From Thalassovita sp. (GTDB lineage: Bacteria; Bacteroidota; Bacteroidia; Cytophagales; Flammeovirgaceae): a stretch of DNA of 24,000 nt. The notes under the pieces are model-generated. The model was not told the DNA's origin. It did no database searches and saw only the letters and a list, made by a program, of their open reading frames with translations. This document shows, piece by piece, positions 2,524-15,626 of the stretch. The position numbers and the translations under genes are program-made. The DNA is taken from contig PBYL01000160.1 in the NCBI GenBank assembly GCA_002729595.1, positions 11,957 to 35,956 of the forward strand, written 5' to 3'. Every line of letters starts with the position of its first letter. The stretch's first letter is position 1.

Positions 2524-3963
2524 CTATTGGCTTTCCTCCGTATTAAATAGAGGCCAGTTGGGGTCGTGAACATGAGCCGAGTTTGCAATATCAACTAAAG
2601 TTTTAAGTACTTCCGGTTCTTGGTTTGCCAAGTTAGTTTCTTCTGATGGGTCAGTATCGAGATTGTAAAGTTCCCAGTCACCATTAGGATTTTTGTAAAC
2701 ATCAGTTCTTACAGCTTTCCAATTATCTTTTCTTACAGCTTGGCTTTTTCCTCCTTCATAAAATTCAAAATACAGGAATTCTTTAGCTTTTTGTTGCCCA
2801 CCTTTTAATGCGGCTAGGTAAGAAGTACCATCAGTATTTTCGGGAGCAGGTACGCCACCAATTTCACAAGCTGTTGGTAGAAAATCGACAAAGCTAGAAG
2901 CATGTGAAGAAGTGCTTCTAGCTTTTATAGTTTCTGGCCAGCGAGCAATAAACGGAATTCTGATGCCACCCTCATACAAATCTCTTTTACCGCCACGATA
3001 AATACCATTGCTATCAAAAAAGCGCGTAAAACCAACTGTTTCTTGCATTGGTCCATTATCGCTAGTGAAAATAATTAGGGTGTTTTCTCCTAATCCTAAT
3101 GAGTCAATTTTTGCAGTAATTTTTCCCACATAGTTATCAAGTCTTTCTATCATGGCAGCATAACCTAAACTGTCTGATGCCCAGTCTTCATTTTTGTAAC
3201 TACCGTAATCTGGTACCTCTTGTTTTTGCCCTTCGGGAGCTTCGCCATTGTTATGAGGGACAGTATAAGGGAGATATAGAAAAAATGGGGAATTATGGTT
3301 AGCATCAATAAATGAAAGTGCTTCATTTGTAAAAAGATCATTAGAATATTCTTTCTTTACAGTGGAATAACTGCCTAATCCACCGTGCCATTCTGTGCTA
3401 TCTAAATAATTTACTTCATTGTCGAGATAGATTTTTTCTTCATTCTTGATCAAGTATTCAGGATAGTAATTATGTGCTAAAACCTGATCGGTGTAACCAT
3501 AAAAATAATCCCAACCTTGTTTGTTTGGGCTGCCTTCTGTTTCCACATTACCCAATCCCCATTTACCGATCATTCCGGTTGTATATCCACCTTGTTTCAT
3601 TAACTCTGCAACAGTAACCATTTGAGATGGCAAAGGCATTTGACCAGAAGGTTGCCATTGTTTGTTACCACGCACAGCCGCATGGCCCATATGCATACCT
3701 GTCATCAACACACAACGAGAAGGTGCACATACAGAAGTACCTGCATAATGATCTGTAAATCGCATGCCTTGATTGGCCAACTTATCTATGTTAGGTGTTT
3801 TAATGAGTTGTTGACCATAGCAACCAACATCGGCATAGCCCATGTCGTCGGCCATAATGTAGATAATATTCGGCTTGGTGCTTTTTACTTCCTTAACAGT
3901 TGTATTTTCATTCTGGCAAGCGGCCAGTATAAATAGAAATATCAGGTATGCTAAATTTTTCAT
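2524..3963 (-). CDS. arylsulfatase (type I, formylglycine-dependent sulfatase family), predicted lipoprotein
   Basis: The N-terminus MKNLAYLIFLFILAAC has an SpII-like lipobox (LAAC). The metal-binding start is IIYIMADDMGYADVGCYG. The sulfatase signature CAPSRCVLMTG carries the C-x-P-x-R formylglycine motif. The C-terminal part has FTSDNGP and GGKRDLYEGGIRIPF, typical of S1 sulfatases. Confidence 0.92.
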   Translation of the reverse strand: MKNLAYLIFLFILAACQNENTTVKEVKSTKPNIIYIMADDMGYADVGCYGQQLIKTPNIDKLANQGMRFTDHYAGTSVCAPSRCVLMTGMHMGHAAVRGNKQWQPSGQMPLPSQMVTVAELMKQGGYTTGMIGKWGLGNVETEGSPNKQGWDYFYGYTDQVLAHNYYPEYLIKNEEKIYLDNEVNYLDSTEWHGGLGSYSTVKKEYSNDLFTNEALSFIDANHNSPFFLYLPYTVPHNNGEAPEGQKQEVPDYGSYKNEDWASDSLGYAAMIERLDNYVGKITAKIDSLGLGENTLIIFTSDNGPMQETVGFTRFFDSNGIYRGGKRDLYEGGIRIPFIARWPETIKARSTSSHASSFVDFLPTACEIGGVPAPENTDGTSYLAALKGGQQKAKEFLYFEFYEGGKSQAVRKDNWKAVRTDVYKNPNGDWELYNLDTDPSEETNLANQEPEVLKTLVDIANSAHVHDPNWPLFNTEESQ

Positions 3964-5085: not shown

Positions 5086-5594
5086 TTTTAATTAAATTGA
5101 ATAAGAATTCGTCTAACAGGCTAGTCTATGATTGCAAGTTGAAAGAATGGTTCGTTTGGGAAGATTGGATATTGCAATTAAGAATGACACTAATTCTTTG
5201 TTAGGTATGTATTGTGAATATATAAAAAATGTAACCTTCTAATGCTTTGTTTGAGGAGTTTGTAGCAGCTTTATAGCTAATTTAGAATTAGTTTAATTTT
5301 TTTTTAGACAGCATGAAACTCAAATAAAAGGCTCTTGTGTTGAGGGTATAAGTTCAACCATCTAATTTTCTCCCACCCATACAAGGTGATTTTAAATATT
5401 TAATCCAGATTTTTTCTTTATTGAATAATAATCTTTTTAAGTTTATTAACCTATATTAAGACTAAACGATTTAGGAGAAAACCAGGGCGGTTTTTAGTTA
5501 TGTGACCATCGATAATTAAACTTGTAAAATCGCTAGTATGCGGTGTTATTTATAAGTTAGCAACTAGAATCATTTGTATACATAAAACTTGAAT
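5086..5594. promoter_or_regulatory. long divergent control region between the cytochrome c gene and the Mo-hydroxylase operon
   Basis: About 500 bp contain no ORF of 60 aa or more on either strand. The region is AT-rich and flanked by two divergent starts, so both promoters must lie here. I could not identify specific boxes with confidence. Confidence 0.35.
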
Positions 5595-6056
5595 ATGGCT
5601 ACTTACAAAATCAAAGTAAACGGAAAGGTGCATCAAGTAGACGTTGAACCAGATACGCCAATTTTATGGGTTTTGCGAGACAATCTCGATCTCGTAGGAA
5701 CTAAGTTTGGCTGTGGTATAGCTCTATGTGGTGCGTGTACTGTACATTTAAATGGTAATGCTGCTCGCTCTTGCTCACTGCCTATAAGCGCAGTAGGTGA
5801 ACAAGAAATTGTTACTATCGAAGGTTTGTCAGAAAAAGCAGAACATGCTGTTCAACAAGCATGGCTGGAACACGATGTTCCTCAATGTGGATACTGTCAG
5901 GCAGGTCAAATTATGAGTGCTGCTTCTCTACTTTCTCAAAATCCTAATCCTACCGATCAGGATATTGATGATGCTATGAATGGAAACATTTGTAGATGTG
6001 GTACTTATGTGCGCATAAAAGCTGCCATTAAAACAGCAGCATCAAAAATGAGCTAA
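5595..6056 (+). CDS. (2Fe-2S)-binding small subunit of a molybdenum hydroxylase (IorA / aldehyde oxidoreductase small-subunit type)
   Basis: The plant-ferredoxin-like cluster motif is [12 protein letters not shown]...C, and the second cluster motif is [10 protein letters not shown]...CRCGTY. The size (about 153 aa from the ATG at 5595; the track uses the TTG at 5589) and the large-subunit gene 19 nt downstream fit the family. Confidence 0.92.
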
Positions 6057-6074
6057 CACTAAAAACCCGAATTT

Positions 6075-8267
6075 ATGACATTAATAAAGACAAAATATAA
6101 CAGAAGATCATTTCTGAAGGTATCATCTGCTGCTGGTGGCGGATTAATGATAGGCTTTAACTGGCTGGCTTCTTGCCAACCGGCAGACAAGCCTGTTACA
6201 AAAGCTCCTCCGAAAGAGTGGTTTGAGATTAATGCCTTTGTGAAAATAGGAGATAATGGACAGGTAACTATCATGTCGCCCAATCCAGAAATTGGCCAGA
6301 ATGTGAAAACATCTATGCCAATGATTGTGGCTGAAGAACTAGATGTAAACTGGAGCGATGTAATTGTAGAACAAGCTCACCTTAGCACGATAAAATATAA
6401 GCGTCAGATTGCTGGTGGTAGCCAGTCTATTAGAGCAGGGTGGGAAAGTTTAAGAATGGCAGGTGCAACCGCCAAAAGGTTGTTGATGGAAGCTGCTGCT
6501 AAACAGTGGGAAGTTCCCGTAACTGAACTTACTGCTGAAAATGGCGTGATTTCTCATGCTGGTTCTGGTAAATCAATTGGTTATGGTGAAGTAGCAAGCG
6601 CTGCTGCTAAAATTGAAATTCCAGAAAAAATTGAGCTTAAAGATCCGAAAGATTTTAAAATTATAGGTAAAGCTACCAAGAATGTTGATGGTAAAAAGAT
6701 TGTTACTGGTCAGCGGCTATTTGGATTAGACTTCAAAAAAGAAGGAATGCTTTACGCAATGATTATTCATGCCCCTGCTTTTGGTATGAAGATCAAAGAC
6801 TATGATGCATCTGAGGTAAAAAGTATGCCGGGTATTAAAGATGTATTCACTGTACAGACTGCACCAGAAGAACCGCAATGGTCAGATGTAAATGGTTTCC
6901 CTGAATTGGTAGCCATCGTTGGTGAAAGCACTTGGCAGGTAATGAAAGCCAAAAAAGCATTAAAAGTTAACTGGGAGCAAGATTCTGCACCAGATAGCAC
7001 AGACGATTATGTAGCCAGACTAGACAAAGCTGTAAACTCTGGTGAAATGGAAGTTGCCAGAAAAGATGGTGACCCAGAAACTGCTTTTAAAAATGCGGCT
7101 AAGATTGTTGAGAAAACATACAGTGCGCCATTCCTTCCTCATAATACCATGGAGCCAATGAACTTTTTTGCTGATGTTACCAGTGAAAAAGCAGATTTAA
7201 TTGGTCCAATCCAAACTCCAGAAAGTTTGAGAAAAAGTGCTTCTATGTTGTTGGGTTTATCAGAAGACAACATCAACGTAGAGATGACAAGAATGGGTGG
7301 TGGTTTTGGTAGAAGACTTTACGGAAACTTCGGATTAGAAGCGGCTGCTATTTCTCAAAAGATGGGTGCACCTATCAAGATGATTTACACCCGAGAAGAC
7401 GACATGACCCAAGGTACTTACAGACCTGCCTACAATGTAAAATACAGAGCTGCTTTAGATGCCAACAACGAGTTGATCGGTTTCCATATTAAAGCGGCTG
7501 GTATTCAAGATTCTCCATTGTTTGCAAACAGATTCCCTGCGGGCGCTGTAGAAAACTACTTGGCAGAAGGCACCAGAATCGATTCTAATATCTCAACTGG
7601 CGCATGGCGTGCACCAAGATCAAACTTTGTGGCTGGTGCAGAGCAATCGTTTTTAGATGAAGTAGCAGAAGCTGCTGGTAAAGACCCAGTAACTTTTAGA
7701 CTAGAGTTATTCGAAAAGTCTATCAACAATCCGGTAGGTGAGAAGAATGACTACGAAGCAGAAAGATACGCAGGTGTTTTAAAATTACTTAAAGAGAAAG
7801 CCAACTGGGGTAAAGAAGCTCCGGGAGTTTATAGAGGTATTTCTGCTTATTTCTGCCATAACTCTTATGTTGGGCAAGTGGTAGATGTAGTAATTGAAAA
7901 CAATAAGCCTAAAGTGCAAAAAGTTTGGTGCGCTGTAGACTGCGGTATCGTAGTAAACCCAGAAGGAGCACTAAACCAGATCGAAGGTGGTATTGTAGAC
8001 GGTATCGGTCATGCGATGTATGGTGCAATTACTTTTAAAGGTGGTTCAGCAGAGCAAAGTAACTTTGATAAATACAGACTGATTAGACATAGTGAAGCAC
8101 CAGCAGAAGTAGAGGTGTTCTTCGTAGAAAATGGCTTACATCCAACTGGTTTGGGAGAACCATCCCTACCACCGGTTATGGCTGCTTTGGCAAACGCTAT
8201 GTATAAAGCTACTGGCAAAAGATTGTATAGCCAGCCTTTCGCACAGAAAGATATTGTAACAGGCTAA
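6075..8267 (+). CDS. molybdopterin-binding large subunit of a molybdenum hydroxylase (IorB / xanthine-dehydrogenase family), TAT-exported
   Basis: The twin-arginine signal NRRSFLKVSSAAGGGLMIGF matches S/T-R-R-x-F-L-K. The protein also has MGGGFGRRL (Moco-binding GGGFG box) and WRAPRSNF, is 730 aa, and follows the 2Fe-2S subunit directly. Confidence 0.9.
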   Translation: MTLIKTKYNRRSFLKVSSAAGGGLMIGFNWLASCQPADKPVTKAPPKEWFEINAFVKIGDNGQVTIMSPNPEIGQNVKTSMPMIVAEELDVNWSDVIVEQAHLSTIKYKRQIAGGSQSIRAGWESLRMAGATAKRLLMEAAAKQWEVPVTELTAENGVISHAGSGKSIGYGEVASAAAKIEIPEKIELKDPKDFKIIGKATKNVDGKKIVTGQRLFGLDFKKEGMLYAMIIHAPAFGMKIKDYDASEVKSMPGIKDVFTVQTAPEEPQWSDVNGFPELVAIVGESTWQVMKAKKALKVNWEQDSAPDSTDDYVARLDKAVNSGEMEVARKDGDPETAFKNAAKIVEKTYSAPFLPHNTMEPMNFFADVTSEKADLIGPIQTPESLRKSASMLLGLSEDNINVEMTRMGGGFGRRLYGNFGLEAAAISQKMGAPIKMIYTREDDMTQGTYRPAYNVKYRAALDANNELIGFHIKAAGIQDSPLFANRFPAGAVENYLAEGTRIDSNISTGAWRAPRSNFVAGAEQSFLDEVAEAAGKDPVTFRLELFEKSINNPVGEKNDYEAERYAGVLKLLKEKANWGKEAPGVYRGISAYFCHNSYVGQVVDVVIENNKPKVQKVWCAVDCGIVVNPEGALNQIEGGIVDGIGHAMYGAITFKGGSAEQSNFDKYRLIRHSEAPAEVEVFFVENGLHPTGLGEPSLPPVMAALANAMYKATGKRLYSQPFAQKDIVTG

Positions 8268-9612: not shown

Positions 9613-10446
9613 TTGCGAATAATAATCATAGTCATATATCTTCTCTCATTTGGAACTTTGAGTGCTCAGACACTTAGCGATTTTGGAGGAATTCCAAATA
9701 AAATTCAAGACACTATATCAGTGATGGAGCTTTTGGCTCAGCTAAAGTGGGATTCAATCGATGAATTTTGTAAAGAAAATAATGGGTTTCACTTGTACGT
9801 AAATGAAAAAGGACTTCTAAGGGAGTTTAGGTACATAAAACAAGGAAATGTTGAATCTTTTAAAATACTTAGCTATCAAGGTCAAGTTTTAGAATTTCGC
9901 TTTAATATACCAGAGTTAAAGAGAACAAATGAATATTTTTTTGATAAAAAATTATGGCTTCAATATGTGAATGAAATAATTCCAGACTTGCCAGATAGTC
10001 TTTTGCTAACAGAAGATGAACCGATAAATTTATTGAAAGGATTCTACTGGTTACTTGGGGTAGATGCTGTAGATGAATATGGTTGGGTTTGTGAATATTC
10101 AGCAATTGGAATGTTACCAACACGAAGAAAAGGTGTGATTACTTTAATTGAAAACAATCGAATTGACTTGCTTAGAAAACTAATGAGTCACACCAATCCT
10201 CAAATTAAACTTTATGCTATTGATGCTCTGATATATATGGATAAAATTGACAATATTTTAAGCGAACAAGATTGGCAATATATCTTTGGCTTTAGAGATA
10301 GCGGTACAATTATAAAAACCTGTGGAAATATGGGTTCCTACAAAATTTACGAAACACCAATTGCAGAACTTCTTTCTAAAAAAGCAATTAAAAGAATTCC
10401 CAAGAATTACAAGTTGCTAAATAGCAGAGTTTATTTCAGTAAATAG
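9613..10446 (+). CDS. secreted hypothetical protein
   Basis: The ORF has a TTG start per the track. The N-terminus MRIIIIVIYLLSFGTLSAQ has an SpI-like signal peptide. I recognise no motif. The C-terminal part (NPQIKLYAIDALIYMDK) is vaguely HEAT/ARM-like. AT-rich non-coding DNA flanks it on both sides. Confidence 0.6.
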   Translation: MRIIIIVIYLLSFGTLSAQTLSDFGGIPNKIQDTISVMELLAQLKWDSIDEFCKENNGFHLYVNEKGLLREFRYIKQGNVESFKILSYQGQVLEFRFNIPELKRTNEYFFDKKLWLQYVNEIIPDLPDSLLLTEDEPINLLKGFYWLLGVDAVDEYGWVCEYSAIGMLPTRRKGVITLIENNRIDLLRKLMSHTNPQIKLYAIDALIYMDKIDNILSEQDWQYIFGFRDSGTIIKTCGNMGSYKIYETPIAELLSKKAIKRIPKNYKLLNSRVYFSK

Positions 10447-10473
10447 AGTAACTATTCAATTTTAAATAATTCA

Positions 10474-10503
10474 TTATTATGTATACTTTAATACACATAA
10501 TAA
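10474..10503. terminator. AT-rich hairpin in a convergent intergenic region (possible bidirectional terminator)
   Basis: TTATTATGTATA / TATACACATAATAA-type inverted repeat of about 12 bp with one mismatch and a 6-nt loop. It lies between the stops of the 9613..10446 (+) and 10579..11214 (-) genes. The stem is all A/T except one G-C pair, so it is weak. Confidence 0.3.
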
Positions 10504-10578
10504 GCTAAAGGATCAGAAATATACTTTCTGGAAGTACAACTCAATAGAATAAGAGATAGGCTAATAGATAAAATTATT

Positions 10579-11214
10579 TTATTCATGTTCAACTTTCACT
10601 TTAGATGATTCTTTTAGTTTTTTGATCGTCTTTTCTAGTTCTGATAGTAAAACTTTTTCACTATTCATAAAGTCAGAAGTGAGGAGTTCAAGCGTTCCGA
10701 GTACATCAATTACTTTGGTTTCGGAGTTAATGGAAATCATTTTATTGAGAATGGTTTTACCAAATTCTGCATTAAAATCAAGGTGTTTATAGGTTTTAGA
10801 AATGAGATGAACCAACTCTATATCTGCTTCTTGCAAAGTACCTGTAATCTTAGAACTCTCAAAAGCAATATCTTCAGAATTTGTGATCACTATACCCTGC
10901 CAGCCTTCAATGCTCATATGATGGAATTTATCATTTGAGATATAGGGCAAAAACATGTCTTGCTCGGTTAGCTTGCTTTTTAGACTATCGATACTAACAC
11001 TTATTTGTTGATGATATTGATAAGATTTTTCTAAACTCGCTTTATTCGTTTCCAACTCTTCAAGAATATAAGAAAGTGATTTATTTACATTCTTATTTAC
11101 CTTCTGTTGCGCTTTCCATTCAGATACATACATACCCAGAAAAACACCAAATGCCACAGTGATTAATTCTAAAGCGTATTTTCCAAGTTGCTTTTTAATG
11201 CTGGTTAGATTCAT
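10579..11214 (-). CDS. N-terminally anchored coiled-coil membrane protein, unknown function
   Basis: One TM segment (YALELITVAFGVFLGMYVSEW) is followed by heptad-like charged stretches (LSYILEELETNKASLEKSYQYHQQISVSIDSLKSKLTEQD; LLSELEKTIKKLKESSK). It is the last gene of the minus-strand run that starts at 14192. Confidence 0.6.
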   Translation of the reverse strand: MNLTSIKKQLGKYALELITVAFGVFLGMYVSEWKAQQKVNKNVNKSLSYILEELETNKASLEKSYQYHQQISVSIDSLKSKLTEQDMFLPYISNDKFHHMSIEGWQGIVITNSEDIAFESSKITGTLQEADIELVHLISKTYKHLDFNAEFGKTILNKMISINSETKVIDVLGTLELLTSDFMNSEKVLLSELEKTIKKLKESSKVKVEHE

Positions 11215-11281
11215 ATAATAGGCAATTTTGACCTATTATAGTTAAAAAAACTGGTTTATCAATGGTTTGAGAATTTGTGCT

Positions 11282-11476
11282 TTAAAAAAACGAACCACAT
11301 ACACCTGCACCAATTACAAAGTATATACCTGCAATAATAAATAATACTTTCGCTGCTTTTGGCTTACTCTTTTTAAGTGCAAAACCGATAATAAGCAGAA
11401 GTATAGCAGGAGAATGCCCAATGAGGTATAGAATGAATATATCCAGAAATTGTATCGAAATCTCTAAAAATTGCAT
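11282..11476 (-). CDS. 64-aa two-TM mini-membrane protein
   Basis: Two hydrophobic helices are separated by the basic loop KKSKPKAAK, and the C-terminus is GAGVCGSFF with the only Cys in the protein. The ATG lies 2 nt after the radical SAM stop (TAA-AC-ATG), which implies translational coupling. Confidence 0.6.
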   Translation of the reverse strand: MQFLEISIQFLDIFILYLIGHSPAILLLIIGFALKKSKPKAAKVLFIIAGIYFVIGAGVCGSFF

Positions 11477-11478
11477 GT

Positions 11479-12873
11479 TTAGCTATGTTTTAGTTCTTCA
11501 AGATAAGCTTGCTTTTCATCTCGGTAAAAGAGATTCATGGTTTCGAATGGTATTATCTTGTTGTCTTTATTTACAATATGCACACAAGATTTTTTAATAG
11601 ACCTCACATCAAAATTATAAGCATCTACAAATTGCATAATAATTACCCTGAACAAATTATCGTAACTCAGGCTTGGTGCTTCAATTTTTGGTAAGCAACA
11701 AAGAATAGAATGCAAACCTTCTGAAGCAGCCTCAGAGGATGTTCCTGTACTAAACAACTCAAACATTTTATTTCTTAAATGTTCATCTTGTTCATATACT
11801 ATGGTATTTTTACTATTGTCTAATAGGTCAGCCGGATTAATGTAACGGGTAAGCGGCAGCACCATTCCACCAAGCTTTAAGGCATAGCCCATCGCCAAAG
11901 CATCTGGGTTGCAAGGCACTGGAATTATATCATCTTGATTAAAAACCTTGGCTTGCTCTAGTATTTTTCGGCGCACTTCGGTAAGGGTAATTCTATCTGT
12001 TTGAGCATCAAAATTATCTAACCTGCCTGCAATTTGTGTTGGTTGGAAAGTGACACCCCGCACACATTTTTGCTTAAGGGCAAAATCGATTGTTTTACCA
12101 ATCTCATCATCATTTAAACCTTTTTGCAAAGTAACCACTAAGGTAGTAGAGAGATTTAACTCATTAAGGTGTTGTAGTGCCTGCTCTCTTATCTTAAGTA
12201 AATCAGCCCCACGAAGCGATTGTAGCACTTCTTCTTTAAAAGAATCGAACTGCAAGTAAATTTCGAAATCGGGTGTATAGCTTTTTAGTCGCTTAGCAAA
12301 GTCGAAATCTTTGGCAATTTTAAGCCCATTGGTGTTTAGCATTATATGCTTAATGGGTAATTGCTTGGCATAATCGAGTATCTCAAAAAATTGTGGATGT
12401 AATGTAGGTTCGCCACCACTAATTTGCACTACGTCGGGTTCTTTCTCATTAGCAACAATAGTATCGAGCATCGTTTTTACCTCTTCTAAAGTGCGATGCC
12501 TGCCATAGGTAGGAGAGGAGCCTGCATAACAAGTAGGGCAAGTAAGATTACAACGATCGGTAATTTCTACCACGGTAAGGCAAGAGTGCTGCTCGTGGTC
12601 TGGGCACAGTCCACAATCGTAAGGGCAGCCATAATGGGTTTTGGTATTAAACTTATAGGGCATCTCAGAAGGCTTATTGTAATTCCTGATGTTTTTGTAA
12701 TACTCCACATCATCGGCAATGAGCACTTTGGAGTTACCATGCTCCGGACACCTTTTGAGCATGTATACCTTGTTGTTTTCAAATACAATTTTGGCATCAA
12801 TCCGCTTTAAACACTCTGGGCAGAGGCTTAGGGTAAAATCATAATAGGTGTACTTTCTGGTAGGCATGCTCAA
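11479..12873 (-). CDS. radical SAM enzyme with N-terminal zinc-ribbon/rubredoxin-like module and an auxiliary Cys cluster (class-D rSAM / Tes-like architecture)
   Basis: CPEC...CPEH (C18, C21, C42, H45) forms a zinc-ribbon-like motif. CPYDCGLCPDHEQHSC (C83, C87, C90, C98) is a candidate auxiliary Fe-S motif. The canonical CNLTCPTC (C108-x3-C112-x2-C115, nt 12529-12552) is followed by ISGGEPTL (GGE SAM-binding box). The C-terminal block is FRVIIMQFVDAYNFDVRSIKKSCVH. There is no C-terminal SPASM-type CxxCxxxxxC array. The TTG start overlaps the upstream gene by 35 nt. Confidence 0.88.
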   Translation of the reverse strand: MSMPTRKYTYYDFTLSLCPECLKRIDAKIVFENNKVYMLKRCPEHGNSKVLIADDVEYYKNIRNYNKPSEMPYKFNTKTHYGCPYDCGLCPDHEQHSCLTVVEITDRCNLTCPTCYAGSSPTYGRHRTLEEVKTMLDTIVANEKEPDVVQISGGEPTLHPQFFEILDYAKQLPIKHIMLNTNGLKIAKDFDFAKRLKSYTPDFEIYLQFDSFKEEVLQSLRGADLLKIREQALQHLNELNLSTTLVVTLQKGLNDDEIGKTIDFALKQKCVRGVTFQPTQIAGRLDNFDAQTDRITLTEVRRKILEQAKVFNQDDIIPVPCNPDALAMGYALKLGGMVLPLTRYINPADLLDNSKNTIVYEQDEHLRNKMFELFSTGTSSEAASEGLHSILCCLPKIEAPSLSYDNLFRVIIMQFVDAYNFDVRSIKKSCVHIVNKDNKIIPFETMNLFYRDEKQAYLEELKHS

Positions 12874-13600
12874 AAAATTTTACGATTGTTTTCCTATAAT
12901 ATATCCAACAGATAATGCATAACCATTGGATGCTACTAAGCCCAAGTATAAAGAAAAGATTTGGTTTAATGAATTCTATATTGAACCTGAAACCAAAATA
13001 GGCAATCATAAAAATAATAAAGAGCTCTCCGTTTTTAAGTGAGTTTTTAGATTTTAAGTGCTGAATTACAAAAAACAGAATAAGTAAAAACACCAGTTCA
13101 TACAAGGCAATAGGATGCCTTAATACACCATCGCCCAGATTTATGCCTGTAAAAAAGTGAGTTTCTGAACCGTAAGTGAATTCGTTGGTACCGCTTAAAA
13201 AGCAGCCAATTCTACCTATAAAAATACCTACAATAATTGGTAGGGTAAACAGATCACCAGAAGATTGCTCTTCGCCAATTATTTTCTTGGCGATTTCTAC
13301 ACCTATAAGCCCGCCAAACAGGCCGCCCATAATGGTTTTAACATTAAGCAGGTGTATAAAGCTTTCTGATGAAAAATTGATAACCGGATTTTCTAAGAAA
13401 CCAAATAAACGTGAGCCCAGAAAAGAACCGATAATGGCTCCCAAAATAATAGACAAACGATTCCCACCTGAGATATGATCATTCGATTTCTTCCTCAGAA
13501 ATACATAATATCTGAAAGCCAGAAAGAATGATAAATACTCAGTAATTAAATGGATATTGATTTTTATCCCAAAAAATACTGGTTCGAAGGGGATGTTCAA
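12839..13600 (-). CDS. prolipoprotein diacylglyceryl transferase (Lgt) family membrane protein, possibly a divergent paralog
   Basis: The polytopic protein has blocks that align by eye with E. coli Lgt. GGLFGGLIGV matches GMSFHGGLIGV. GRIGCFLSGTNEFTYG matches GRLGNFINGELWG. RHPIALYELVFLLILFFV matches RHPSQLYELLLEGVVLFI. FGFRFNIEFIKPN matches GAFRIIVEFFRQPD. It has a TTG start per the track and is 253 aa. Confidence 0.8.
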   Translation of the reverse strand: MNIPFEPVFFGIKINIHLITEYLSFFLAFRYYVFLRKKSNDHISGGNRLSIILGAIIGSFLGSRLFGFLENPVINFSSESFIHLLNVKTIMGGLFGGLIGVEIAKKIIGEEQSSGDLFTLPIIVGIFIGRIGCFLSGTNEFTYGSETHFFTGINLGDGVLRHPIALYELVFLLILFFVIQHLKSKNSLKNGELFIIFMIAYFGFRFNIEFIKPNLFFILGLSSIQWLCIICWIYYRKTIVKFFEHAYQKVHLL

Positions 13601-13676
13601 GGTTGTGTGTTTTAGGCAAAGATAGGTCTCGATTGGATAACAACCCCCTAAAGTTTAGTTAATCTGTAACTACGAA

Positions 13677-14192
13677 TTACTCAGAAGCATAAATATCTTG
13701 CATATTTTTACCTGCTCCCAATACGCATTTCTTATTCACATAATCTACAATAATACCATAATCTCTCATGGCATCTGAGCCAATTATACCGCTTATTTCG
13801 TAGCCTGTTTTGCTCTTAATAGATGCTCTCAATTGTTGAAGAGGGGCACCAGCATAAGGAGTAGAAATGTTTTTTCCTCCAATGTTTACATTTACATCGA
13901 ATAACATCCAAAGATTTAAGTTTTTGCCACCAAATCCATTAATGTTACGAGAGAGTTTTTTGTAAACATTAAAAGCATAGTCTCTTTTTTGAGTTAAGTC
14001 TAGCAATGTTATGCTTGAGCCGGTATCAATTAAAAAGTATGCTTTTTTGTTGTTAAGTGTTCCTTCGACTACTGGTAATTTTGTGCTCAGTAAATCAATA
14101 TGAACGGGCTTGCCAGGAAATGAAACAGTAAATTTTTGTGCACTTAAATGTGAAAAAGTTACTAGAAGAAAAATAGTAATTAAAAATCTCAT
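13677..14192 (-). CDS. secreted retropepsin-like (clan AA) aspartic protease
   Basis: The signal peptide is MRFLITIFLLVTFSHLSAQ. The catalytic-type triad context is YFLIDTGSSITLLD (D56, nt 14025-14027). The downstream ISGIIGSDAM resembles the (I/L)-(I/L)-G-x-D box of single-domain retropepsin-like proteases that act as homodimers. The protein is 171 aa. Confidence 0.75.
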   Translation of the reverse strand: MRFLITIFLLVTFSHLSAQKFTVSFPGKPVHIDLLSTKLPVVEGTLNNKKAYFLIDTGSSITLLDLTQKRDYAFNVYKKLSRNINGFGGKNLNLWMLFDVNVNIGGKNISTPYAGAPLQQLRASIKSKTGYEISGIIGSDAMRDYGIIVDYVNKKCVLGAGKNMQDIYASE

Positions 14193-14489
14193 TAATACTA
14201 CATGTTTCTGATAAATTAAGTTGAGGCTCTGAAATGGAGCTCTGTTAGTGAAGGCTCATATTTAACTTAAATATCAAACATCGAAGTCTGAATACCATAA
14301 AAATAACATATTTGATATGTAAATAAAAGCTAGAATTCGCTGAAAGTATATTTGACCTATCTTAATTAGGTAAAGTTCAAGTAAGGTTTATGGCCTGAAA
14401 CGAGAAAAATATGTAGTACATAACATAGCGTTTTTTTAGTGATATTGAAGTACTCATAAAATAGCTGCTAAATCCACAAAGTATTTAGA

Positions 14490-14497
14490 TAAATTTG
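14490..14497 (+). promoter_or_regulatory. candidate Bacteroidota -7 promoter box (TAnnTTTG)
   Basis: TAAATTTG matches the TAnnTTTG consensus of Bacteroidota sigma-A promoters exactly and lies about 50-75 nt upstream of the TPR gene starts (14547 TTG, 14574 ATG). I see no clear -33 TTG element, so this is tentative. Confidence 0.3.
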
Positions 14498-14573
14498 GGA
14501 AAAAGTACATCTACATTGCTGATTTTTAAAAACTAGTAAAATATTATTGAGCCAAAATTGGTATAAGATTAAA

Positions 14574-15626
14574 ATGAGAAAAAACTGGATTTTATTTATA
14601 ATTTTTTTGCTTTCAAGTCTAAATTTACTCGCTCAAGGTGCAGATGAATACAATTACAAGGGAGTGGTTTTGTATAACAAAGAGAAGTATGAGGCTGCTA
14701 TTTCTGCTTTTGATAATGCTATAAAAATTGATAGTCGACATGCTGATGCATATTTACACCGTGCTGATGCGAAAGCTGAACTTGATGACTTTGAGGCTGC
14801 AATTAAAGATTACAATAAAGCAATTGAACTTAATCCCAAAAGTAGTTATGCTTATGCACGTCGAGGTTTTGCAAAATACAATTTAGATGATTTTAACGAA
14901 GCTTGGTTAGATTATAAAATTGCTCTAAGTATAGACCCAGAAAATGCATACGCTTACTATTACCGTGGTTTATATTTTTCGGCAGAAAGTGAAAATGGGA
15001 AAGCATTGCAAGATTTAAACAAGGCGCTAAAATTAGATCCAGAATTAACAGATGTATATGGTGATAGAGCATATGTTAAAGATGATTTGATAAAATATAA
15101 AAGTGCTGTAAAAGACTATGATAAAGCTATAAAGTTCGACCCAGACAATGCCGATTTATATTTCAATAGAGCTTATAGTAAACATAATTTGGGGAAGTTT
15201 GAGGCAGCGATTAAAGACTATTCTAAAGTAATAGAGTTGACTCCTTTAGACCATAAAGCCTATAATAACAGAGGTTTAGCTAAATACAAATTGAAAAGAT
15301 TTAAGGAGGCCATTATGGATTTTGAAAAATCTTTACAATTAGCTCCTGATACTACATCTCAACCTTTATATAATCGAGGTTTGGCAAAACATTCATTAGA
15401 TCAGTTCGCCGCTGCTATTGAGGATTACAACATAGCCTTGGAGTTAGCGCCACACAATGAGGCAGAGGTTTATAGATTTAGGGGCTTGGCAAAATCAGCA
15501 CTTAAGAATTATGAAGGCGCAATTGATGATTTACAAAAAGCACAAGAAATAAAACCTGAAAGTAACACGATTAGGAAAAACCTTCGATATGTAGAGTATT
15601 TAAAAGAGTCTGAAAGCGAAGAGTAG
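14574..15626 (+). CDS. secreted tetratricopeptide-repeat (TPR) protein
   Basis: From the ATG at 14574 the protein reads MRKNWILFIIFLLSSLNLLAQG (signal peptide). About nine consecutive 34-aa TPR units follow (recurring A-Y-x-x-R-(G/A)-x-A-K-x-x-L-x-x-(F/Y)-x-x-A-I-x-D-(Y/F)-x-K-A-(I/L)-x-(I/L)-(D/N)-P). The track start at TTG 14547 adds nine residues. Confidence 0.9.
   Translation: MRKNWILFIIFLLSSLNLLAQGADEYNYKGVVLYNKEKYEAAISAFDNAIKIDSRHADAYLHRADAKAELDDFEAAIKDYNKAIELNPKSSYAYARRGFAKYNLDDFNEAWLDYKIALSIDPENAYAYYYRGLYFSAESENGKALQDLNKALKLDPELTDVYGDRAYVKDDLIKYKSAVKDYDKAIKFDPDNADLYFNRAYSKHNLGKFEAAIKDYSKVIELTPLDHKAYNNRGLAKYKLKRFKEAIMDFEKSLQLAPDTTSQPLYNRGLAKHSLDQFAAAIEDYNIALELAPHNEAEVYRFRGLAKSALKNYEGAIDDLQKAQEIKPESNTIRKNLRYVEYLKESESEE

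Follow-up and report, generated by a model that had tools for sequence, protein, structure and literature searches.

A radical SAM enzyme of the Tes superfamily in a bacterial gene cassette with an Lgt paralogue and a cysteine mini-protein

Background

What does an enzyme resembling an archaeal tetraether-lipid synthase do in a bacterium with ester lipids? The question is raised by a stretch of 24,000 nucleotides from Thalassovita sp. (Bacteroidota, Flammeovirgaceae; assembly GCA_002729595.1, contig PBYL01000160.1, positions 11,957 to 35,956), in the following referred to as the window. On its minus strand, at 11479..12867, the window encodes an enzyme of the radical S-adenosylmethionine (SAM) superfamily and of the Tes/GDGT-MAS type (rSAM), preceded by a paralogue of the lipoprotein-pathway enzyme Lgt and followed by a mini-protein with a single Cys. 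The three genes, for the Lgt paralogue, the Tes-like rSAM and the Cys mini-protein, form a cassette that is co-inherited across phyla and sometimes fused. The cassette joins the Tes superfamily to the Lgt pathway, and there is a real chance that its product is a new type of protein lipidation.

The radical SAM enzyme and its metal sites

The sole long open reading frame (ORF) at 11479-12873 lies on the minus strand; the plus strand there is crowded with stop codons. It yields 464 residues if read from a TTG at 12873 and 462 residues from an ATG two codons further inside, at 12867. The ATG is the likely start, because homologues in the databases are 461-465 residues long and the consensus of 77 sequences begins with MPxRxYxYYD. 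Residue numbers refer throughout to the 464-aa form (minus 2 for the ATG form). Conservation was scored over the same 77 homologues, which come from Bacteroidota, Bacillota, Pseudomonadota, Acidobacteriota, Planctomycetota, Cyanobacteria and other groups.

The protein begins with a rubredoxin-like zinc-ribbon domain (residues 10-53; 12715..12846, minus strand; PF23545 Zn_ribbon_HMPTM, 74.5 bits) that contains C18, C21, C42 and H45. Then comes an N-terminal auxiliary [4Fe-4S] motif, C83-X3-C87-X2-C90-X2-H93, followed by H96 and C98 (12580..12627, minus strand), which was assigned by alignment to the Methanocaldococcus jannaschii enzyme (MjTes). The radical SAM core barrel with its SGGEPT box occupies residues 102-265 (12079..12570, minus strand; PF04055, 94 bits), and the SAM cluster motif C108-X3-C112-X2-C115 within it maps to 12529-12552. 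The C-terminal domain (11578..11913, minus strand), as delineated by alignments and conservation, has an altered set of Cys residues, C321, C392, C393 and C430, together with H432 and M413; C430 and H432 belong to the C-terminal block IIMQFVDAYNFDVRSIKKSCVH. With the exception of Met413, which is not invariant, all these Cys and His residues and the SGGEPT box are invariant in the 77 homologues, and this invariance is far beyond chance.

The initial annotation had listed C18/C21/C42/H45, C83/C87/C90, C108/C112/C115, a GGE box and a C-terminal block, all of which are present, and its expectation that the extra Cys motifs would be conserved among orthologues was confirmed. It counted three Cys-rich sites; these are real, and the fourth set, C321/C392/C393/C430, was overlooked. 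It also held that a SPASM domain is absent, and indeed no Pfam SPASM or twitch model matched the rSAM, while NCBIfam models of SPASM-family proteins and maturases scored 60 bits or less and spanned only the core barrel (approximately residues 95-265).

A member of the Tes superfamily outside the Tes clade

Among solved structures the closest match by sequence was GDGT-MAS of M. jannaschii (PDB 7TOL), with an E value of 1.9e-72 over residues 13-321 and 404-455; the next matches, MoaA and SkfB, had E values of about 1e-5. An AlphaFold2 model built with the 77 homologues (mean pLDDT 84.6, pTM 0.86) was compared with known structures by Foldseek. The best hits were 7TOM and 7TOL (TM-score 0.82, E 7e-39), and the runner-up was SkfB with a TM-score of 0.38. 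Judged from sequence and predicted structure, the rSAM belongs to the Tes/GDGT-MAS superfamily, and its four-domain architecture is that of GDGT-MAS, because the TM-score to 7TOM/7TOL is 0.82 as compared with 0.38 for the next structure. The proposal of the initial annotation, made from the motif layout, that the protein is of the Tes/GDGT-MAS group thus stands as far as the superfamily is concerned (7TOL match, TM-score, HMPTM ribbon and Radical_SAM domain), and the best profile and structure matches are not to an unrelated radical SAM subgroup.

The assignment does not extend to orthology. On the NCBIfam model for Tes (NF045702) the rSAM scored 303 bits against a cut-off of 450, and on the TrsS model (NF045646) 337.8 bits against a cut-off of 490. 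A full-library HMMER search returned 713 cluster representatives at E <= 1e-30, and a tree was made from 114 full-length sequences, with 20 representatives labelled by NCBIfam. In this tree one clade consists of Tes and another of TrsS proteins, and the members tested from each score above the cut-off of their own model; the window rSAM belongs to neither but to a third clade that has no name. NF045702 is passed by P0250, P0266 and P0241, which were tested as representatives of the Tes clade, and their clade excludes the window rSAM; true TrsS members (P0235, P0189 and P0236) score 545-652 bits. The phylogeny therefore places the enzyme outside the Tes clade. By these cut-offs and this branching, and by the C-terminal differences described below, the rSAM is not an orthologue of Tes.

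The MjTes ligands used for comparison are those listed in PMC9433317 (review: PMC13459092). C18/C21/C42/H45 align to the rubredoxin-like Fe site C9/C12/C33/H36 of MjTes. The segment GCPYDCGLCPDH of the rSAM aligns to MjTes GCPYDCGLCPNH, so that C83/C87/C90/H93 correspond to the [4Fe-4S]N site, C73/C77/C80 plus a His. C98, which had been suggested as a ligand of the auxiliary cluster, aligns to Ile in MjTes, and Val or Ile is found in 5 of the 6 Tes-clade sequences examined. This suggestion was not borne out; the counterpart of the Tes His ligand is H93.

The C-terminal domain is where the two enzymes diverge. M413, situated in the conserved FxDAYxFD block of the rSAM, aligns to Met439, the labile ligand of [4Fe-4S]C in MjTes. 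At the positions of three C-terminal Cys residues that both the Tes and the TrsS clade conserve, the window clade has A325, S429 and E444; S429 and E444 correspond to C455 and C470 of MjTes in the alignment to 7TOL. The three Cys and the Met are conserved also in most of the other bacterial clades, and many bacterial clades hold both Cys sets, the Tes-type triad as well as the C321/C392/C393/C430 type. From their conservation we infer that the three Cys of Tes are [4Fe-4S]C ligands; the text of PMC9433317 names only Met439. Since [4Fe-4S]C is the proposed parking site of the first lipid radical in Tes (PMC9433317, PMC13459092), the rewiring of the Cys residues touches the heart of the coupling mechanism. 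In addition, Tyr459 of MjTes aligns to Ile433 of the rSAM; this Tyr is strictly conserved in 1,000 archaeal homologues, yet it is not essential for activity (PMC9433317).

The two enzymes (MJ0619; 7TOL, 7TOM; NF045702 on the archaeal side) are thus alike in fold, in the rubredoxin-like CX2C...CX2H, in the N-terminal [4Fe-4S] motif CX3CX2C plus His, in the SAM cluster and in the Met, whereas they are only about 30% identical. TrsS, a radical SAM (seleno)protein, gave the best NCBIfam score, over nearly the same length (residues 14-457; the model has 441 positions), and C98 is common to both. The difference is that members of the TrsS clade have the C-terminal Cys triad and Met of the Tes type, and the window clade does not have this triad. 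TrsS is uncharacterised and was found only in a list of selenoproteins (PMC13188914).

The cassette in other genomes

In a sample of 300 Bacteroidota genomes, rSAMs of the cassette type were found in 23, and the Lgt paralogue was present in the same 23 genomes and in one more. Weaker rSAM matches occurred in two further genomes, a divergent one with 36% identity (G144) and a Tes-type one (G169). The gene context was compared in 19 Bacteroidota loci of 18.5 kb each. Their flanks are unrelated, and the only genes that recur are the Lgt paralogue (17 of 19) and a small ORF (16 of 19, in some loci as two tandem copies).

A scan of named species gave 80 loci from approximately eight phyla. The Bacteroidota among them include Chitinophagaceae, Sphingobacterium, Pedobacter, Chryseobacterium, many Flavobacteriaceae and Lewinella; the others belong to Paenibacillus, Fictibacillus, Heyndrickxia, Bacillus, Planctomycetota, Longimicrobium, Massilia, Pelomonas and Oleiagrimonas, and to Chloracidobacterium, Vicinamibacteria, Bryobacterales, Fischerella and Myxococcota. 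The Lgt paralogue is encoded nearby on the same strand in 75 of the 80 loci, in nearly all of them directly upstream, and three of the remaining five loci are at a contig end. Cys mini-proteins are present in most of the 80 loci, and no other neighbour gene recurs across lineages in this set.

The identity matrices of the rSAM and the Lgt paralogue are correlated (Mantel r 0.89, not reached by any of 999 permutations), to which shared species phylogeny contributes. The rSAM is far more constrained, with a mean identity of 63% as compared with 43% for the Lgt paralogue. Two database proteins, P0123 (733 aa) and P0255 (671 aa), are fusions of an N-terminal Lgt-like domain to a C-terminal rSAM and come from different clades; they are known as protein records, and for either of them a frameshift artefact is possible. 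The clade of P0255 keeps the Tes-type C-terminal Cys triad, and therefore the link to Lgt is wider than the clade of the window rSAM.

None of nine genomes of the same order has the cassette, yet the relatives closest to the rSAM, at 84% identity, come from a different family within the class, and in one genus the cassette is present in 4 of 11 species. This patchy distribution suggests horizontal spread as a unit.

A divergent five-gene variant is present in two Bacteroidota genomes (L043 8481-11951 and L044 9883-12088, in G031 and G178). It encodes an rSAM of 40-42% identity, a methyltransferase of the ICMT family, a Cys-rich membrane protein of 165 aa and an Lgt paralogue with GCCYG; the fifth product is a mini-protein that ends in ...GGCLLII or ...LFGAC.... 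The ICMT gene may be a sign that a lipidated Cys close to a C-terminus is processed in this variant. A link of the window cassette to ICMT was considered and rejected, as the ICMT-like gene and the 165-aa membrane protein occur only in L043 and L044. A different case is the Tes-type enzyme of G169 (L046 8864-10321), which clusters with the Tes clade and retains the Cys triad of the Tes type; its neighbourhood contains neither an Lgt paralogue nor a mini-protein. Judged by this grouping it is a separate lineage of bacterial Tes homologue, and as the one Tes-type locus examined it contrasts with the rSAM, which is tied to both partners.

The Lgt paralogue

The first gene of the cassette (12839..13600, minus strand) starts with TTG and encodes a 253-aa Lgt-family protein (PF01790, 84 bits). 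It overlaps the rSAM gene by 29 nt if counted from the ATG (35 nt from the TTG), and overlaps of similar size are found in the closest relatives. Its AlphaFold2 model (pLDDT 93.7) had a sole significant fold match, E. coli Lgt (5AZB; TM-score 0.59, E 2e-6). These findings agree with the initial annotation, in which the enzyme was described as translationally coupled to a lipid-binding transferase. On the equivalog model TIGR00544 the protein scored 40.7 bits against a cut-off of 118.9, and its periplasmic head is shorter by approximately 20 residues.

Functionally important residues of E. coli Lgt were mapped onto the paralogue by alignment to 5AZB, and their conservation was counted in 74 paralogues. 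Mutation of the mapped residues abolishes complementation in E. coli, and H103 has been proposed to bind the acceptor peptide (PMC4728403). The equivalents of R143, Y235, R239, E243 and R246 in the window paralogue are R130, Y201, R205, E209 and K212. R143, H196, Y235 and R239 are kept in 74 of 74 paralogues, the position of E243 is Glu or Asp and that of R246 Lys or Arg in all of them. Two positions are altered in every paralogue. Asn146 of the signature motif is replaced by Cys (74/74), and H103 of the HGGL box, replaced by Phe in the window, is Leu, Phe, Ala, Ile or Val (74/74), never His.

The assembly contains five LGT-family genes: L128 (contig C233), L129 (C33), L130 (C477), L132 (C342) and the cassette paralogue. 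Two are canonical, with both the His and the Asn; besides these and the cassette paralogue, there is one paralogue that stands alone and one form of 366 aa distinguished by a long insertion. As the assembly consists of 487 contigs and is 78% complete, some of the LGT-family copies could reflect heterogeneity of the bin. The stand-alone paralogue L130 reads GRLGCFFAGCCYG, with Cys for Asn146 and without the His. The replacement of Asn146 by Cys was therefore rejected as a hallmark of cassette paralogues.

The cysteine mini-protein

The ORF of the mini-protein (11282..11476, minus strand) starts 2 nt past the stop codon of the rSAM. It encodes 64 residues with two transmembrane helices, connected by the basic loop KKSKPKAAK, and a single lipobox-like Cys in the sequence ...VIGAGVC-GSFF, four residues from the C-terminus, which makes the protein a candidate substrate of lipidation. 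The gene is called in the public annotation. In a strain with a 99% identical rSAM the mini-protein is 86% identical, and the differences are confined to the first 14 residues. Support for the ORF consists of its conserved position, the hairpin, the charge pattern and the Cys motif; the relatives are too diverged for dN/dS.

The consensus around the Cys is [LIV][IVL][GS][LFV][GSA][AIVL]-C-[GAS]. In Paenibacillus, Fictibacillus and a gammaproteobacterial metagenome-assembled genome (MAG) the motif is L-x-A-[AS]-C (L-N-A-A-C, L-N-A-S-C and L-V-A-A-C), which is near the canonical lipobox. The mini-protein gene is located 3' of the rSAM or, as in Sphingobacterium and Chryseobacterium, between the genes of the two enzymes. 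An upstream position, with the Cys after the first helix, is found in Massilia, Pelomonas and Acidobacteriaceae. One to four copies are found per locus, in tandem.

The mean net charge is +2.3 in the 14 residues that precede the Cys-proximal helix and +0.3 in the tail after the Cys. Because of this charge pattern, the Cys-proximal helix is predicted to run from inside to outside, with the Cys at the outer face. The active site of Lgt is likewise at the outer face of the membrane (PMC4728403).

Relation to known systems

The cassette resembles the lipoprotein pathway (E. coli Lgt, 5AZB; lipobox [LVI][ASTVI][GAS]C) in that one partner has the Lgt fold and that the Cys of the mini-protein lies at the outer end of a helix after a basic segment, as in the n-region, h-region and lipobox of a lipoprotein signal. 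It differs in having Gly or Ser at position -2 and a hydrophobic residue or Ala at -1. Moreover, no mature domain follows the Cys, which lies close to the C-terminus of a dedicated mini-protein or, in Burkholderiales, behind its first helix; and the Lgt paralogue is coupled to a radical SAM enzyme.

Invariant Cys residues beside a transmembrane helix, proposed to be lipidated by an Lgt-like enzyme, are also a feature of the MYXO-CTERM/myxosortase system (PMC11980579), and the L043/L044 variant shares an ICMT-family methyltransferase with CaaX/ICMT processing. MYXO-CTERM differs in its inverted topology, in the tagging of large secreted proteins, in its CPBP protease and in being without a radical SAM enzyme; the window cassette contains no ICMT or CPBP gene. 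By analogy, the MYXO-CTERM model is the nearest conceptual precedent for lipidation of a non-N-terminal Cys by an Lgt-like enzyme (PMC11980579).

Mss of Thermotoga and Thermoanaerobacter is, like the rSAM might be, a bacterial radical SAM enzyme that joins fatty-acyl tails tail-to-tail (PMC13159169). According to its published description it is different in not being a Tes homologue (BLAST searches with Tes find none in Mss carriers) and was detected only in anaerobes (PMC13159169). Bacterial Tes homologues are treated in the literature only as possible enzymes of branched glycerol dialkyl glycerol tetraether (brGDGT) synthesis (PMC8941075, PMC11868695). Our literature search found no publication that describes the cassette or mentions the Lgt paralogue or the mini-proteins.

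A possible mechanism and its alternatives

The reading we prefer, which we regard as about as likely to be right as wrong, is that the Lgt paralogue puts diacylglycerol on the Cys of the mini-protein and the rSAM remodels the acyl tails. The mini-protein would insert with its basic loop in the cytoplasm, so that the second helix would carry the Cys at its outer end, in the way a lipobox Cys follows the h-region. The Lgt paralogue, with its Arg/Tyr/Glu network for activating phosphatidylglycerol (PG) kept and the His of the acceptor site replaced by Phe, would transfer a diacylglyceryl group to this Cys. The rSAM may dock on the cytoplasmic C-terminus of the Lgt paralogue; the orientation of the fusion proteins fits such a C-terminus, because of the seven-helix topology with the periplasmic head between helices 4 and 5, as deduced from PMC4728403. 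GDGT-MAS binds whole phospholipids, including those of E. coli, and abstracts hydrogen from the tail terminus (PMC9433317). By the same chemistry the rSAM would take hydrogen from the terminus of an acyl tail via 5'-deoxyadenosyl radicals and then couple or otherwise functionalise the tails, and the rewired C-terminal Cys/Fe-S site could hold the first radical. The order may be reversed, with the lipid remodelled ahead of transfer. The outcome would be an unusual lipid anchor on a small membrane protein, and this anchor could be macrocyclic, cross-linked or membrane-spanning.

Unusual lipid chemistry had been anticipated in the initial annotation. The Tes family and the Lgt-family partner speak for it, but with the mini-protein in the cassette, a lipid-modified protein becomes a more likely product than a free membrane-spanning lipid. 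A more specific version, drawn by analogy, has diacylglycerol S-linked to the mini-protein Cys and its tails joined by radical chemistry, either mutually or with a lipid from the other leaflet. Ordinary aerobic bacteria would then make a macrocyclic or membrane-spanning lipid that is anchored to a protein, and the lipoprotein pathway would be merged with tetraether-type chemistry. We consider this version tentative and, on balance, rather doubtful.

Several observations weigh against the lipidation reading. The Lgt paralogue may not be a transferase, because H103 is absent from it and all H103 substitutions tested in E. coli Lgt were inactive (PMC4728403). Coupling of carbon atoms as in Tes is not assured, given that the Tes-type C-terminal Cys residues are not conserved in the rSAM. 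The model of the rSAM is of low confidence in residues 348-397, and the loop with C392 and C393 has a pLDDT below 50. The Cys is predicted to be at the outer face and the rSAM in the cytoplasm, with the membrane between them; the rSAM therefore cannot touch the Cys itself and would have to reach the tails through the bilayer or act before transfer. Some loci (L034, L040, L100 and L112) have no detectable mini-protein or have the Lgt paralogue elsewhere. Finally, of the tandem mini-proteins of a Flavobacteriaceae MAG (L077) one keeps the Cys (3217-3426, LGICGSM) and the other has Phe in its place (2976-3182, LGIFGAL).

The first alternative is that the rSAM is a synthase of membrane-spanning lipids acting on free phospholipids, for example converting iso-C15 tails into iso-diabolic acid or brGDGT-type lipids. 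The Lgt paralogue would then be no more than a PG-binding membrane dock, and the mini-protein would act as accessory subunit. Bacteroidota commonly contain iso-branched acids. In its fold and its N-terminal metal sites the rSAM matches GDGT-MAS, which binds bacterial phospholipids (PMC9433317); bacterial Tes homologues have been proposed as brGDGT enzymes, and iso-C15 tails, which end like phytanyl chains, as their bacterial substrates (PMC8941075). The conservation of the rSAM (mean 63%), well above that of its partners, would also be expected with an invariant lipid substrate. Against these points, the Cys thought likely to bind the Tes-type [4Fe-4S]C and Tyr459 are not conserved, and the enzyme is under the cut-off of the Tes model and outside the Tes clade. 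Moreover, this alternative leaves unexplained both the dedicated, co-evolving Lgt paralogue and the retention of the Cys motif in mini-proteins that otherwise evolve fast and are often duplicated in tandem. We know of no membrane-spanning lipids reported from the carriers in Flavobacteriia and Bacillales, in a literature not searched exhaustively. On this evidence a free-lipid product is unlikely.

Small, fast-evolving, tandem ORFs with one invariant Cys beside a radical SAM enzyme with auxiliary clusters are the classic layout of peptides that are made by the ribosome and modified after translation (RiPPs). The rSAM could, accordingly, modify the mini-protein itself by a thioether or other cross-link at the Cys or its neighbour, the Lgt fold serving as scaffold or exporter. 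The second-tier matches are maturases of the SkfB, AlbA, SuiB and PqqE type, and the Cys set C321/C392/C393/C430 could provide an iron site that is open to a substrate thiolate, as it is in sactisynthases (PMC10177961). What makes this explanation improbable is that the similarity to peptide maturases is limited to the common core barrel (TM-scores 0.31-0.40), whereas the entire four-domain architecture of the lipid enzyme is retained, and the rSAM has no SPASM, twitch or RiPP recognition element (RRE) domain. The mini-proteins are hydrophobic hairpins rather than leader-core peptides, and their charge pattern puts the Cys on the outer face, away from the cytoplasmic enzyme.

Another hydrophobic substrate, such as a quinone, carotenoid, hopanoid or polyprenol, would fit a dead, lipid-binding Lgt paralogue used as an anchor, and a structural or regulatory mini-protein whose Cys is a metal or cluster ligand or a redox thiol. 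The replacement of the essential H103 in all 74 paralogues, the two canonical Lgt genes already present in the same genome and the mini-protein copy without Cys in L077 are in line with this view. Strict retention of the residues that bind PG and activate its glycerol C3-phosphate bond (R143, Y235 and R239 in 74 of 74; E243 as Glu or Asp) would be odd in a dead scaffold, and no isoprenoid or quinone genes recur beside the cassette in the loci examined, so that we judge this alternative to be quite unlikely.

A function as pterin methyltransferase (7,8-dihydro-6-hydroxymethylpterin dimethyltransferase, the old 'class D methylase' label of MJ0619), a name which JGI gives to some homologues of 83-85% identity and which is echoed in the HMPTM ribbon domain of Pfam, is highly improbable, methanopterin biosynthesis being, to our knowledge, not expected in Bacteroidota. 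This annotation was rejected on the published structure and assays of MJ0619, which show a lipid enzyme with a hydrophobic tunnel (PMC9433317).

Surroundings of the cassette

Two further minus-strand genes flank the cassette. Upstream, 76 nt from the Lgt paralogue, a 171-aa secreted protein (13677-14192) gave a weak, retropepsin-like match to Asp_protease_2 (E 5e-4, below the cut-off). Downstream, after a gap of 67 nt from the mini-protein, lies a gene for a 211-aa membrane-anchored, coiled-coil-like protein (10579-11214) with no family match. A five-gene operon extending from the protease-like to the coiled-coil gene was considered and rejected, as neither of them adjoins the cassette in any other locus; the 171-aa protein is probably not part of the cassette.

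A scan of 10400-14700 for promoters and terminators found fewer sites than in shuffled sequences, and the promoter type used is wrong for Bacteroidota. Base composition around the cassette gave no clear island signal. On the plus strand, at 5589-8267, the window has a 155-aa ORF followed by a 730-aa protein with a twin-arginine-type signal, both unrelated to the cassette.

Implications

Tes-type chemistry, the joining of two unactivated methyl termini, has so far been established only for archaeal tetraethers. The only role so far discussed for its bacterial homologues, and that as candidates, is in the synthesis of brGDGTs, whose origin is an open question behind widely used palaeoclimate proxies. 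According to our sequence comparison, a large part of the 'bacterial Tes homologues' retrieved with BLAST have a rewired C-terminal site and ties to an Lgt paralogue and a Cys mini-protein. Because of these two features, counting homologues of the window clade as producers of tetraethers or brGDGTs is probably wrong.

The cassette is present in common cultured genera (Flavobacterium, Tenacibaculum, Chryseobacterium, Pedobacter, Sphingobacterium, Paenibacillus and Massilia), and with three small genes it is open to experimental test. If the lipidation reading is true, the rSAM would offer a second version of the Tes active site, informative as to mechanism, and the cassette would constitute a new route of protein lipidation.

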